Below, piece after piece: positions 1 through 9,000 of a DNA stretch of 64,000 nucleotides (position 1 is its first letter; the number at the start of each line of letters is the position of its first letter). This DNA is from Escherichia coli (GTDB taxonomy: Bacteria > Pseudomonadota > Gammaproteobacteria > Enterobacterales > Enterobacteriaceae). Position numbers: made by a program. The stretch is taken from the NCBI RefSeq assembly GCF_003018235.1, contig NZ_CP027437.1. The stretch is one strand, 5' to 3'.

Positions 1-3000
1 TACTTTTATCGGGAGGGTGATCGACCGGCTGGGATTAGATAAGGAAACAGGCTACACTTCGCCTTTGAAAACTCATCATCACGATAAACATAGAGGCGAA
101 GTCCAACGTGGCTCAATTCGTTTATACCATGCATCGTGTCGGCAAAGTTGTTCCGCCGAAACGTCATATTTTGAAAAACATCTCTCTGAGTTTCTTCCCT
201 GGGGCAAAAATTGGTGTCCTGGGTCTGAACGGCGCGGGTAAGTCCACCCTGCTGCGCATTATGGCGGGCATTGATAAAGACATCGAAGGCGAAGCGCGTC
301 CGCAACCGGATATCAAGATTGGTTATCTGCCGCAGGAACCGCAGCTGAACCCGGAACACACCGTGCGTGAGTCCATTGAAGAAGCGGTTTCTGAAGTGGT
401 TAACGCCCTGAAACGCCTGGATGAAGTGTATGCGCTGTACGCCGATCCGGATGCCGATTTTGACAAGCTGGCCGCTGAACAAGGCCGTCTGGAAGAGATC
501 ATTCAGGCTCACGACGGTCACAACCTGAACGTTCAGCTGGAGCGTGCGGCGGATGCGCTGCGTCTGCCGGACTGGGACGCGAAAATCGCTAACCTCTCCG
601 GTGGTGAGCGTCGTCGCGTGGCGTTGTGCCGCCTGCTGCTGGAAAAACCAGACATGCTGCTGCTCGACGAACCGACGAACCACCTGGATGCCGAATCCGT
701 GGCGTGGCTGGAACGCTTCCTGCACGACTTCGAAGGCACCGTTGTGGCGATTACCCACGACCGTTACTTCCTCGATAACGTGGCGGGCTGGATCCTCGAA
801 CTGGACCGTGGTGAAGGTATTCCGTGGGAAGGTAACTACTCCTCCTGGCTGGAGCAGAAAGATCAACGTCTGGCGCAGGAAGCTTCACAAGAAGCTGCGC
901 GTCGTAAGTCGATTGAGAAAGAGCTGGAGTGGGTACGTCAGGGGACTAAAGGCCGTCAGTCGAAAGGTAAAGCACGTCTGGCGCGTTTTGAAGAGCTGAA
1001 CAGCACCGAATATCAGAAACGTAACGAAACCAACGAACTGTTTATTCCACCGGGACCGCGTCTTGGCGATAAAGTGCTGGAAGTCAACAACCTGCGTAAA
1101 TCCTATGGCGATCGTCTGCTGATTGATGACCTGAGCTTCTCGATCCCGAAAGGAGCGATCGTCGGGATCATCGGTCCGAACGGTGCGGGTAAATCGACCC
1201 TGTTCCGTATGATCTCCGGTCAGGAACAGCCGGACAGCGGCACCATCACTTTAGGTGAAACGGTGAAACTGGCATCGGTTGATCAGTTCCGTGACTCAAT
1301 GGATAACAGCAAAACCGTTTGGGAAGAAGTTTCCGGCGGGCTGGATATCATGAAGATCGGCAACACCGAGATGCCAAGCCGTGCCTACGTTGGCCGCTTT
1401 AACTTTAAAGGGGTTGATCAGGGTAAACGCGTTGGTGAACTCTCCGGCGGTGAGCGCGGTCGTCTGCATCTGGCGAAGCTGCTGCAAGTTGGCGGCAACA
1501 TGCTGCTGCTCGACGAACCGACCAACGACCTGGATATCGAAACCCTGCGTGCGCTGGAAAACGCCCTGCTGGAGTTCCCGGGCTGCGCGATGGTTATCTC
1601 GCACGACCGTTGGTTCCTCGACCGTATCGCCACGCACATCCTGGACTACCAGGATGAAGGTAAAGTTGAGTTCTTCGAAGGTAACTTTACCGAGTACGAA
1701 GAGTACAAGAAACGCACGCTGGGCGCAGACGCGCTGGAGCCGAAGCGTATCAAGTACAAGCGTATTGCGAAGTAATGCGTAAAATACCGGATGCGACGCG
1801 CCAGCATCGCATCCGGTATTAGTTAAATGATTAGTCCCCGGAAAAGGCAGAATTTTCTTTAAGCGTATTAGCTCAGATGCGGACTGACATCTCAAATCAA
1901 GCGGGAACTCATGGTTCCCGCTTAACGTTTTATTCACCGCGCAAAATCTGGCGGAAATGGGAAACCAGCGGACGTTGGTTGGCTTTATGCCAGGCTGCCC
2001 ATAATTGCGTTGAATAATTCATCCACGGCAATTCACGTAATACCACCCCTTCCGGCGCATTATGACGCAGACTATGTTGAATTAAGGCCAGACCTAATCC
2101 CGCAGCGACCAAACCTAATGCCGTGAGGGGTTCACCCGCTTCCAGGCGAATATCAGGATTAAACCCGGCGTTAACACAGGCGGCGACAAAATGATCGCGA
2201 GAATGCGCATCGTCGTTATGAATCACCGCAATCCACTGCTCATCGCCAAGTTGTGACGCGACAAGGTTTTCCTCCTGCGCCAGAGGATGATTTTGCGGTA
2301 AGGCCAACAACATTCGATCATCCAGAACCTGAATATATTCCAGATCCTGCTCGCTGTCGGTGGGCGGCGTATCGACCAGAGAAAAATCGAGACTGCGCTG
2401 GCGCAGGCCTTCAATCTGGGTAGCCGGTGGTTGGCTGTAAAGTGCGATATGCACATTCGGACGCGATACACGTAACGTACGTAGCGCCGTAGAAAGCACA
2501 CCGGAATGCATGGCGTTTTCGATATAGCCAATACACAAGCCACCATCTTCCCCCCGTCCCAGGCGTTTGCCTAACGACTCCAGGCGGTTGGCGTGTGTCA
2601 GCAACGAACGTGTTTCGGCAAGGAATGTCTGTCCATCAGCGGTCAGGCGAATGCGCTGCTGATTACGCTCAAACAGCGTCAGCCCCAGCCGTTCTTCCAG
2701 TTGTGCAATCTGGCGGCTCAGCGGTGATTGCGAGATATGTAATCGCTCGGCTGCGCGTCCCACGTGCTCTTCTTCTGCGACCACCACGAAGTACTTCAGT
2801 TGGCGTAAATCAATCATGTTAGACCTAAAAGGACTTAAGTCAGACGAATTATGTCCTATCAAGTCACAACATCGCAAGGTATTGTGATCCACGTCACAGG
2901 GCGATAGCAAAAAACGCCCTAACCCAAACCGAATAATTGAGGACATCTTATGAGCATCAAAAATTTACTTCCCGGCAAAATTGGCTTAGGCGGCGCACCA

Positions 3001-6000: not shown

Positions 6001-9000
6001 ATCAAAAAAACTCATTTTATACCTCGCCTTTGAGCCGTTTCGTCACGGTTATCTCTGCTCGCCCATCATCTCCCGCACCAGCTCCACACAGCGCAGGAAA
6101 CGGCTGTCGTAATCGTCCTCTTCAACACGCACGAATTCGATATTGTTCTCTTCCAGCATCTCCACCAGCAAGTTCTGGAACTCTTTGCGATCCACCGAAC
6201 TACCGAGGCTGCGTAAACCATCCGCCACCCACGGGGTGTTGTTCTCCAGCAAGATAACCAGATCAAAACGGTATTCATCAATCAGCGCCTGCACGAACGG
6301 ATGCTCACGCCCTTCGTACTTTTTGCAGAACGCCTGGGTAGTGACAAAATCAGTGTCGATAAACGCCACTTTATTGGCGTATTTCACTGCAAAATCAATA
6401 TATTGCGCGTGTCCCAGCGCGATTTTATCGTAGTCAGAATACTGCAATGCGATCTCATCACCGCCGAGGTGTGAAAAGACATAATCGCGACCATATTCCC
6501 ACGCACTGGTGGTATTGAAGATATTGGCAAGTTTGTTTACCAGGGTTGATTTACCGCTCGACTCGCCGCCAAGGATCGCCACGGTACGCACAAAAAACGG
6601 CTTCACTTCAGTGGGGATATATTCCCAGTAGCGGAACGGGTTTTCGCGGATCTGCGCACCGCTGATACTCATAAAGGTGCGTTTCGGATCGACCAGCACC
6701 GTTTCGATCCCCAGATGTTCCATATACTGTGGCGCATCGGCTTCTTCCGAGGTGTAGATCAGGTCCGGCTGGATCCCCTTTTCAGCCATAAACTTTTTGA
6801 TGCCATTGCTCCACACATCCCAGCCGTGCGGATATGGCTCCATGCCCTCTTCGTTGAAAGCATGAATACGGATATTTTTCTGATATTTAAAGGTTTGCAA
6901 TAACCAGCGCAGACGATCCGGCACGGTGGGCTGCTGCGACATGGCGCTGTCTTCAAACAACGCACGGTCACGGGTATCGTCAAAGCCCATAATGATATGC
7001 AACTCGTCAACCTGGCTACAGGCGCGCTGGATAAGGTAGATATGTCCGGTATGCAACGGGTAGAACTTACCGAATACCACGCCAATGGTTTTCTTTTGGC
7101 GGGGAAACTCAAGCCCCAAAAAACGGTGCAACGCCTCCAGCTTTTGCGCGCTGGGGCTTTTAATTTTGGCATTCAGTAACTGGCTTAAATACCCTTTGGT
7201 CATACCGCTGGCATCAGCTACCTGCTGTAGCGTGCAGCCCTGTTGCTTGATGGCAGTTTTCAGGTAATCAAATGACGACATATCTCCCTCCGTATCTCTC
7301 ATTATAAGTCGTCGAACACGCTAAGCGCGTCGGAGAGTTTTTTAACGCCAAAAATCTGCATCCCTTCCGGCGCTTTTTTCGGCACGTTAGCCGCCGGAAC
7401 AATCGCCCGCCGAAAACCGTGTTTCGCCGCTTCAGAGATTCGTTCCTGGCCGCTGGGCACCGGGCGGATCTCCCCTGCCAGCCCGACTTCACCAAACACC
7501 ACCAGATCCTGCGGTAGCGGTCTGTCACGCAGGCTGGAAACCATCGCCAGCAGTAACGCTAAGTCGGCACTGGTTTCCGTCACCTTCACGCCGCCGACCA
7601 CGTTAACAAATACATCCTGATCGGCCATTTGCAACCCACCGTGACGGTGCAGCACCGCCAGCAGGATTGCCAGACGGTTTTGCTCCAGCCCCACTGCCAC
7701 GCGGCGTGGGTTAGCCATCATCGAGTGATCGACCAATGCCTGAATCTCCACCAGCAGCGGACGCGTTCCTTCCCACACTACCATCACTGAGCTACCGGAG
7801 GTCACTTCATCACCGCGGCTTAAAAAGATGGCGGAAGGGTTGCTAACTTCACGCAGCCCCTGTTCGGTCATCGCGAAGACGCCCAGCTCATTCACCGCGC
7901 CGAAGCGGTTTTTATGGCTGCGTAAGGTGCGAAAACGGGAGTCGGCATCGCCATCCAGAAGCACCGAACAGTCGATACAGTGTTCCAGCACTTTAGGGCC
8001 AGCCAGCGAGCCATCTTTGGTTACGTGCCCAACCATGACAATCGCCACGCCGCGCGTTTTGGCGAAGCGCGTCAGATAAGCCGCCGTTTCACGCACCTGC
8101 GCCACGCTGCCAGGCGATGACTGAACATCCGCCATATGCATCACCTGGATCGAGTCAATTACCATCAGCTTCGGTTGCTCTTCTTCGGCAATCAGGCAGA
8201 TCTGCTCGATGCTGGTTTCCGACAACATATTGAGATTGTCAGTCGGCAGGCCAAGGCGATGAGCGCGCATTGCCACCTGTTGCAGCGACTCTTCGCCGGT
8301 GACATACAGCGTTTTCATCTGCTGGGCCAGTTTGCACAGCGTTTGCAACAGCAGCGTGGATTTCCCCGCGCCTGGGTTACCGCCAATCAGAATGGCGCTT
8401 CCCGGCACCACCCCGCCGCCTAATACGCGGTCGAACTCTTTAAATCCGGTAGAAAAACGCGGCAGCTCCTCAAGGCTGATGTCGGAGAGTTTCTGGACTT
8501 TTGCCACTCCGGCGCTACCGGCATAGCCACTGAGACGCTCGTTACGCGCCACCGTTGGCGACGCAGCAAGACGCACCTCGGTGATGGTGTTCCAGGCATG
8601 ACAGGCACTGCACTGCCCCTGCCAGCGCGGATAATCGGCCCCGCATTCATTACAAACAAAGGCGCGTTTTGGAGCTTTTGCCACGGTGTACCTCGTTAAT
8701 GCTGTGCCGCCCGCAGGATGACGGGCAGGCAATTACTTCTGATTCAGGCTGCCAGAGAGGATGCAGAATACCCCCATCAGGTCAGCGTGACGGATGGTGA
8801 CTTCCGTTTTTTCATTCACTTTTGGCTTGGCATGGTAGGCAATCCCCAGCCCTGCCGCTTTGATCATCGGCAGGTCATTGGCTCCATCGCCAATCGCCAC
8901 GGTCTGCGCCAGCGGGATTTCATACTCCTGCGCGAGGCGAGTCAGAGTTTTCGCTTTGTACTGCGCGTCTACGATGTCGCCGATCACATTGCCGGTAAAT

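Follow-up and report, generated by a model that had tools for sequence, protein, structure and literature searches.

A small, probably acquired oxidoreductase islet between ettA and nadR of Escherichia coli

We analyzed the gap between ettA and nadR in a 64,000-nt window of the Escherichia coli contig NZ_CP027437.1 (assembly GCF_003018235.1), to which all coordinates refer unless another locus is named. In K-12 MG1655 these two genes are neighbours, as a preliminary description of the window had noted, and lie 307 bp apart without an annotated gene in between, whereas the gap in the window measures 4,273 bp. It holds a gene for a LysR-type regulator, divergent from genes encoding an aldo/keto reductase (AKR), a short-chain dehydrogenase/reductase (SDR) and a small SRPBCC protein, followed by a DUF1471 gene and the remnant of an old yellow enzyme (OYE) reductase gene. 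These genes probably constitute a small, horizontally acquired islet seated within the remains of nadS, the antitoxin gene of a former toxin-antitoxin (TA) pair. The inventory was drawn from a listing of open reading frames (ORFs) and from Pfam scans of the window, and from left to right the features are as follows.

108-1775, plus strand: ettA, left core flank (ORF and RefSeq).
1820-1862, minus strand: 3′ (C-terminal) remnant of nadS with a spacer common to TA-bearing strains (DNA homology to locus L003 1702-1875, ending at 1862).
1863-1896: left junction filler of 34 bp, including at 1876-1889 the left member of a weak pair of 14-bp direct repeats, GAWGCGGACTGWCA.
1897-5848: acquired islet proper, 3,952 bp (DNA common to E69, locus L006, 97.6%, and to E. 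whittamii, L007, 94.2%, both at other chromosomal loci).
1899-1923, plus strand: hairpin with an 11-bp stem, bounding the shared DNA on its left and located at the 3′ end of lysR.
1930-2817, minus strand: LysR-type transcriptional regulator, 295 aa (HTH_1 and LysR_substrate).
2818-2949: divergent control region, 132 bp.
2950-3959, plus strand: AKR pseudogene, 336 aa when intact, here with a 219-aa product ending at 3609.
3979-4776, plus strand: classical SDR oxidoreductase, 265 aa, intact, 19 nt past the AKR stop.
4802-5218, plus strand: SRPBCC/Bet v1-like small ligand-binding protein (Polyketide_cyc2), 138 aa, intact.
5376-5588, plus strand: DUF1471 (YdgH/BhsA/McbA-like) secreted small protein, 70 aa, intact.
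5607-5848, plus strand: OYE/NemA-like alkene reductase pseudogene.
5849-5900: right junction filler of 52 bp, possibly very degraded OYE sequence.
5901-6015, minus strand: what is left of the 5′ (N-terminal) part of nadS, comprising codons 1-21 and about 22-41 and lacking 10 bp internally.
6049-7281, minus strand: nadR, right core flank.

Between 1776 and 6049, LysR, AKR, SDR, SRPBCC, DUF1471, the OYE remnant and the nadS remnants explain every ORF. Each gene named in the preliminary description was thus recovered at its place by ORFs and Pfam, including the divergence of the regulator from the oxidoreductase set, and the insertion indeed has no counterpart in K-12. Its bounds had been set at 1930-6048; the DNA shared with copies elsewhere instead spans 1897/1899, at the hairpin after the LysR gene, to 5848, and the split halves of nadS had been overlooked. 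AKR and SDR genes are separated by 19 nt and SDR and SRPBCC genes by 25 nt, a layout that suggests an operon.

The states of the gap were counted in 5,426 complete E. coli genomes. An intact gene for a RelE/ParE-family toxin followed by nadS, whose product is a helix-turn-helix, antitoxin-like protein (NCBIfam NadS, 183 bits), occupies the gap in 673 of them. This state includes the B2 strains 536, SE15, ST131 and ATCC 11775. The middle segment of nadS is present in 730 genomes and therefore about 57 genomes have nadS without the toxin. IAI39 (L093 9081-9365) appears to preserve this intermediate state: it carries a full-length orphan nadS, 33 bp after nadR, and the same toxin deletion as described below. 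The remaining ~4,200 genomes are mostly K-12-like, with a few showing other deletions at the site. In the K-12-like state, the first ~38 nadS codons are kept and the 3′ part is replaced by 137 bp recognizable as repetitive extragenic palindromic (REP) elements. The islet itself was found in 482 genomes (about 9%), in one copy each, always on the chromosome and always between ettA and nadR; a few carriers have insertion sequences (IS) within it. It had been called strain-specific, but is better described as lineage-restricted. As a simple marker of phylogroup D it was ruled out, since strain 042, which belongs to this phylogroup, shows the REP-filled state of K-12.

Homology of the window to the TA state extends from ettA through 1862, including the last ~14 codons of nadS, and resumes at 5901 with codons ~41 to 1, interrupted by the 10-bp deletion. 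Since the two halves of nadS flank the islet, the islet sits inside this gene, where it replaces 116 bp. The 5′ remnant stops 33 bp from the nadR stop, at the junction of the toxin deletion, and tblastn gave no match to the toxin gene in the window. Pairwise alignments placed the endpoints of this 395-bp deletion at L003 2147-2541, identically in IAI39, K-12-type strains, 042 and islet strains. The RelE/ParE-NadS pair is known from the nadR-ettA gap of B2 adherent-invasive and uropathogenic E. coli as parE-3/yiaG-2, or 'TA30' (NRG857c, CFT073; PMC7232551), where the 307-bp gap of K-12 was treated simply as TA-less (PMC7232551). Unlike this reading of the K-12 gap, the alignments indicate that K-12, IAI39 and the islet strains have one toxin deletion in common. 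The pair also occurs in unrelated contexts in Hafnia and Leclercia and is thus likely to be mobile itself. A type II RelE/ParE-NadS system as such was rejected for the window, given the missing toxin and the split antitoxin gene.

Three further observations concern nadS. A small K-12 gene of this name has been reported to be expressed (PMC12350097); in the K-12 gap (L005, L004), this small ORF consists of the N-terminal stump of the NadS antitoxin fused to REP-element sequence. The 137-bp replacement holds two further REP-like copies. Finally, the N-termini of NadS (its first 13 residues, MSFFDELKTSLEE) and NadR (MSSFDYLKTAIKQ, window 7243-7281) look alike, a weak similarity (E = 0.43) that may be due to chance.

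We propose the following history. The gap would first have held the RelE/ParE-NadS pair, from which a single 395-bp deletion would have removed the toxin, leaving orphan nadS as in IAI39. In one E. coli lineage, the islet would then have replaced 116 bp in the middle of orphan nadS, probably by illegitimate recombination. Its OYE gene is damaged in every E. coli copy seen. Homologous recombination in the conserved flanks ettA and nadR would later have carried the islet into other backgrounds, and K-12-type strains would independently have filled the same orphan nadS with REP elements.

Conversely, the islet might be ancestral at this site in E. coli, with K-12 and most other states arising by deletion. 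The shared toxin deletion of K-12-type and islet states would agree with this, and, as the breakpoints of the islet in nadS fall within the K-12-type ones, the geometry would permit the K-12-type state to arise by deletion of the islet. We nevertheless judge such a history very improbable, and it is largely refuted by the distribution and divergence of the islet. The preliminary description had named intact genes, universally present at this position, as a sign of a derived K-12 state; with only 482 carriers, K-12 did not simply lose these genes. The gene broken up by the islet, nadS, is whole in 730 genomes, the intermediate IAI39 among them, and the K-12-type gap is filled with REP elements and contains no islet remnant. 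Moreover, the islet is 97.6% identical to a copy at another locus in a cryptic clade whose core genome is only 92% identical to that of E. coli, and it is less diverged than its own flanks.

The latter two points can be quantified. Within Escherichia, the islet occupies three loci: (i) ettA-nadR in E. coli; (ii) the yhiN/pitA/uspA/dtpB/rsmJ region in E69 (L006); and (iii) unrelated flanks in E. whittamii (L007). The core flank of E69 is only 92% identical to that of every E. coli, which places E69 in the cryptic clade. Despite 19 synonymous differences in the gene, the AKR proteins of E. coli and this clade match at 100% identity. Compared with GMF054, one of the two closest complete genomes, synonymous divergence (dS) of the window was 0.01-0.03 for the islet genes and 0.07-0.11 for ettA and nadR. 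The ettA allele of the window is 99.94% identical to that of CT282, a TA-state strain, and 98.3% identical to that of the islet carrier GMF054, a pattern pointing to a recombination breakpoint near the left islet junction. Together, the low dS of the islet and the TA-state ettA allele fit a single, relatively recent acquisition, after which the islet would have moved between backgrounds by recombination in its conserved flanks. Two side observations relate to these copies. In E69, a 1,482-aa ORF (L006 12523-16971, minus strand) lies ~0.8 kb past the OYE gene of the islet, in DNA that no complete E. coli genome contains. A 1,397-bp contig (L008), binned into a metagenome-assembled genome of 'Collinsella sp.', carries an AKR gene 99% identical to that of the E. 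coli islet and is most likely a mis-binned Escherichia contig.

Two genes of the islet are damaged in the window. The ORFs at 2950-3609 and 3510-3959 are two frames of one AKR gene (PF00248), frame 1 matching profile positions 1-143 and frame 3 positions 163-287. The gene is intact (336 aa) in E69 as well as in GMF054 (L001) and N3 (L002), the two closest complete genomes, which were used for alignment. A single frame-breaking difference distinguishes the window from the latter two, namely the loss of one G (GGGG to GGG at 3564-3566), and the frameshift noticed in the preliminary description was thereby confirmed. With the G restored, the protein is one residue (R38W) apart from the GMF054 copy. 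The AKR is intact in all 482 complete carriers; a 61-nt probe over the deletion site matched them with at most 98.4% identity, and none of them had the deletion.

A change from GGGG to GGG is a classic homopolymer error. Together with its absence from the 482 carriers and the single amino-acid difference in the remainder of the protein, this could mean that the frameshift arose in sequencing or assembly, that the gene is intact in the living strain and that the old OYE scar is the sole decay. We regard this as unlikely, because the exact 219-aa truncated product recurs on 23 contigs of NCBI and Logan assemblies (the longest of 5.01 Mb), although these may represent one strain sequenced repeatedly, and because SRR21461730, an independent sequencing run, yielded a contig that matches window 1-6609 at 100% identity. 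Most likely, then, the frameshift is a real and recent knockout fixed in one clonal lineage. In this lineage the 1-bp deletion would have inactivated the first gene of the operon and left the regulator, SDR, SRPBCC and DUF1471 genes intact.

The OYE gene had been described as truncated, and the damage proved greater than this. The fragment matches only positions 12-63 of the 342 positions of PF00724 and is similar to PRK10605 (NemA-like) of NCBIfam. Compared with the intact 365-aa gene of E69, it shows (i) a lost start codon (ATG to ACG); (ii) TAA as codon 2; (iii) a 6-bp in-frame deletion; (iv) the absence of a 686-bp internal stretch (L006 10833-11518); and (v) the loss of the 3′ end, i.e. 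all sequence past L006 11592. What remains is an N-terminal part up to 5774 and a 74-bp internal part at 5775-5848. Of the E69 query holding the intact gene, each of the 482 carriers covers about 10% at most, and thus the remnant appears to be an old scar fixed in all E. coli carriers. In E. whittamii, too, the central part of this gene is deleted (L007 10778-11116 against L006 10785-11422). As the endpoints differ from those of the E. coli deletion, the gene was probably inactivated independently in this species.

Strong purifying selection acts on the islet genes. Across Escherichia, Trabulsiella, Yokenella, Yersinia and Raoultella, dN/dS was 0.03-0.15 for LysR, AKR, SDR, SRPBCC and DUF1471, and 0.03-0.1 for the four-gene module without DUF1471. 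The suggestion that the locus is undergoing decay therefore stands only in part: the OYE gene is dead and the AKR gene is frameshifted, but the first scar is old, the second lesion is recent and confined to the lineage of this strain, and neither these dN/dS values nor the intact AKR of all other complete carriers are those of a decaying locus.

To survey relatives, the intact AKR was compared with one genome per species; 571 relatives emerged, and the survey went on with the best 80 loci among them. All four genes, LysR divergent from AKR-SDR-SRPBCC, occurred together in 68 of these 80 loci, and a few lacked the SDR. Four-gene loci were found in Escherichia, Trabulsiella (AKR 97% identical), Yokenella (95%) and Yersinia (93%), but also in Raoultella, Serratia, Providencia, Ewingella and Acinetobacter (about 85%) and in many Pseudomonas (about 76%). 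Distant copies of the module reside on chromids or megaplasmids of Ewingella, Burkholderia, Paraburkholderia, Cupriavidus, Rhizobium, Streptomyces and Bacillus. Among 72,556 plasmids, no close copy (>90%) of the islet was detected, the best match being the distant one of Ewingella (71.7%). In E69 and Yokenella the full unit has six genes and ends in an intact OYE reductase gene. The islet is accordingly a truncated copy of a six-gene block, LysR divergent from AKR-SDR-SRPBCC and then DUF1471 and OYE, without mobility genes.

The regulator has both domains of its family, an N-terminal HTH_1 (PF00126, 2e-24) and a C-terminal substrate-binding domain (PF03466, 7e-39). Its raw ORF extends to 2946, and RefSeq as well as the homologues begin at 2817. 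A conserved block, AGACCT-N4-GGACTYAAGT-N8-ATTATGTC..GTC, lies at about 2821-2865 and abuts the start codon of the lysR gene. Of 78 loci, with 72 distinct sequences among them, 73 keep this putative operator at a constant spacing from the lysR start. A sigma-70-like promoter candidate for lysR is located at 2877-2848. We propose that the LysR protein would bind the putative operator by its own start codon, sense a small molecule and activate the divergent operon.

For the enzymes, no islet protein reached a curated (equivalog) cutoff of NCBIfam, so that no specific enzyme name can be given. The SDR matches adh_short (1e-37) and adh_short_C2 (2e-44), with GSTSGIG as the TGxxxGxG cofactor motif and YGVTK as the YxxxK active site in its translation. 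It is nearly identical to a structure to which no function is assigned (8g9m), and its characterised neighbours are NADPH-sorbose reductase and hydroxybutyrate dehydrogenases. In the AKR, the motifs FDTAPLYG, SSKVG and WIHDP (DxxxxY, SSK and IHD type) are visible by eye in the translation as candidates for the catalytic Asp-Tyr-Lys-His tetrad. Its best NCBIfam match, YdjG, scored 71 bits against a cutoff of 550, and its nearest solved relatives are plant L-galactose dehydrogenases (PDB 8scc, 7smi and 7ezi; E = 2e-29 to 2e-22). The AKR and SDR, as carbonyl/alcohol oxidoreductases dependent on NAD(P)(H), would most likely act together with the Bet v1-fold binder on one hydrophobic or sugar-like environmental carbonyl compound. 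No transporter, lactonase, dehydratase, kinase or follow-on pathway enzyme is conserved beside the module, which argues for a diffusible substrate.

Detoxification, as proposed in the preliminary description, is plausible. The one observation in its favour is the neighbourhood in some Enterobacterales: an OYE reductase gene lies near the module in Escherichia, Yokenella, Trabulsiella odontotermitis and Providencia, and DUF1471 adjoins it in the first three. Against it speaks that the kin of the AKR are L-galactose dehydrogenases rather than methylglyoxal or dicarbonyl reductases. Possibly, the module instead performs a specific metabolic step unrelated to electrophiles or stress, e.g. aldose/lactol oxidation of the L-galactose/L-fucose type or the conversion of a plant or soil metabolite. 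Both the relatives of the AKR, with YdjG far below its cutoff, and the characterised neighbours of the SDR would agree with this, as would the abundance of the AKR-SRPBCC core in Rhizobium, Burkholderia, Pseudomonas and Streptomyces replicons and the restriction of accompanying DUF1471 and OYE genes to some Enterobacterales. The lack of a conserved transporter, lactonase, dehydratase or kinase is, however, unusual for a sugar pathway and typical of enzymes for diffusible compounds, and the OYE and DUF1471 neighbours are better suited to detoxification. We therefore hold the specific-step alternative to be tentative and somewhat doubtful.

The AKR of E. coli and Pseudomonas shares about 76% identity, and the module is unusually well conserved, as is its putative operator. 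About evenly balanced, in our estimate, is the wider reading in which LysR/AKR/(SDR)/SRPBCC would be an uncharacterised, horizontally mobile module for a single widespread environmental compound and the ettA-nadR gap a recurrent landing site. Toxin loss, REP invasion and islet capture may all have taken place here because the gap held a decayed toxin-antitoxin pair.

Overall, a small horizontally acquired islet with the history and function proposed above is the best explanation of the locus, and we consider it probable as a whole. Several points weigh against it. The functional part is built solely from domains and synteny, and we found no experimental work on the cassette in the literature. 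The islet contains no integrase, recombinase or transposase gene by ORFs and Pfam, and no tRNA is near it, the only tRNAs of the window being at 46262-46416. No significant repeat flanks it; the best, of the GAWGCGGACTGWCA type, matches at 12 of 14 bp and was equalled in 29 of 300 shuffles. The 34-bp and 52-bp fillers have no match in the fetched loci or elsewhere in the window. Simple scans also gave no promoter-like or terminator-like site for the AKR operon, which fits an activator-dependent promoter but proves nothing. For the insertion itself, the absence of an integrase, transposase, tRNA or significant terminal repeat, together with the untraceable fillers, is why illegitimate recombination is suggested. 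A classical integrative genomic island was ruled out on the same grounds and by base composition, GC being 0.45-0.61 over the islet and 0.49-0.60 in ettA and nadR without a sharp step. No Rfam RNA family was found within 1-10 kb of the window.

Elsewhere in the window, a mosaic lambdoid prophage (24270-62000) follows prfC and a dinI-like gene, and the match to the closest relative, GMF054, ends at 24270. Its genes include a Q antiterminator (46666-47418), tail protein J (27552-30314) and a phage integrase (60590-61813), all on the minus strand. Of the stretch 24200-49000, complete E. coli genomes cover 43% at most. At 25173-26755 (plus strand), two adjacent ORFs match CdtA/C (PF03498, 4e-42) and an Exo_endo_phos nuclease (CdtB-like), and look like a prophage-borne cdt operon. 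RNA domains of a group II intron (Rfam RF02001, RF01998 and RF00029) extend over 3.7 kb at 41609-45347 (minus strand). The reverse-transcriptase ORF of the intron has only 294 aa (44012-44896), and ORFs for IS21-family istA/istB (42201-44002, plus strand) are nested within the span, as if an IS element had interrupted the intron. Prophage-associated RNAs at 31835-31957, 45426-45637, 46262-46416 and 51942-52130 comprise isrC, STnc100, tRNAs, C4 antisense RNA and isrK, with tRNA-Lys(ttt) and tRNA-Met(cat) directly downstream of Q.

For annotation, these results mean that the ettA-nadR gap has at least four related states, that the 'nadS' of K-12 (PMC12350097) is an antitoxin stump, and that an apparently decaying detoxification locus is for the most part a well-kept operon of wide occurrence, marked by a single old scar and a single recent knockout. 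The operon is strongly conserved across phyla. The E. coli carriers and a natural AKR-null lineage could help to find its function; if the wider reading is true, they offer a tractable system for identifying the substrate of the module. The locus exemplifies ordinary small-scale turnover of the accessory genome, of modest biological interest and without challenge to current understanding.

Among the closest known systems are structural-genomics entries near-orthologous to islet proteins: 8g9m and 3t4x for the SDR (E = 1e-137 and 5e-70), and 3cnw ('XoxI') and 3f08, from Bacillus, for the SRPBCC protein (4e-52 and 1e-50), although none carries a functional assignment. The two SDR structures are from Bacillus anthracis. 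Through these matches, the SDR and SRPBCC families reach Firmicutes. L-galactose dehydrogenase-type AKRs are the closest solved relatives of the islet AKR, in whose sequence DxxxxY, SSK and IHD motifs can be seen, but the similarity is distant, no ascorbate or galactose pathway context exists at the islet, and substrate specificity is not transferable. With nemRA-gloA, the electrophile-response locus of E. coli K-12, the ancestral form of the islet had in common a NemA-like OYE gene beside carbonyl oxidoreductases. It differs in its regulator, which is of the LysR and not of the TetR type as NemR is, in the absence of a glyoxalase, and in the OYE gene, dead in every E. coli copy. The regulator follows the paradigm of LysR-type regulators and their divergent target operons, with both domains, a 132-bp divergent gap and a conserved putative operator at its own start, although the conserved block has no obvious T-N11-A dyad; its best NCBIfam similarities, AlsR (223 bits against a cutoff of 430) and PRK09986, are both below cutoff. 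Finally, compared with parE-3/yiaG-2 'TA30' (PMC7232551), the window has no toxin gene and a split antitoxin gene, so that no TA function is left, but the chromosomal site is the same, and both halves of the antitoxin gene nadS still flank the islet.

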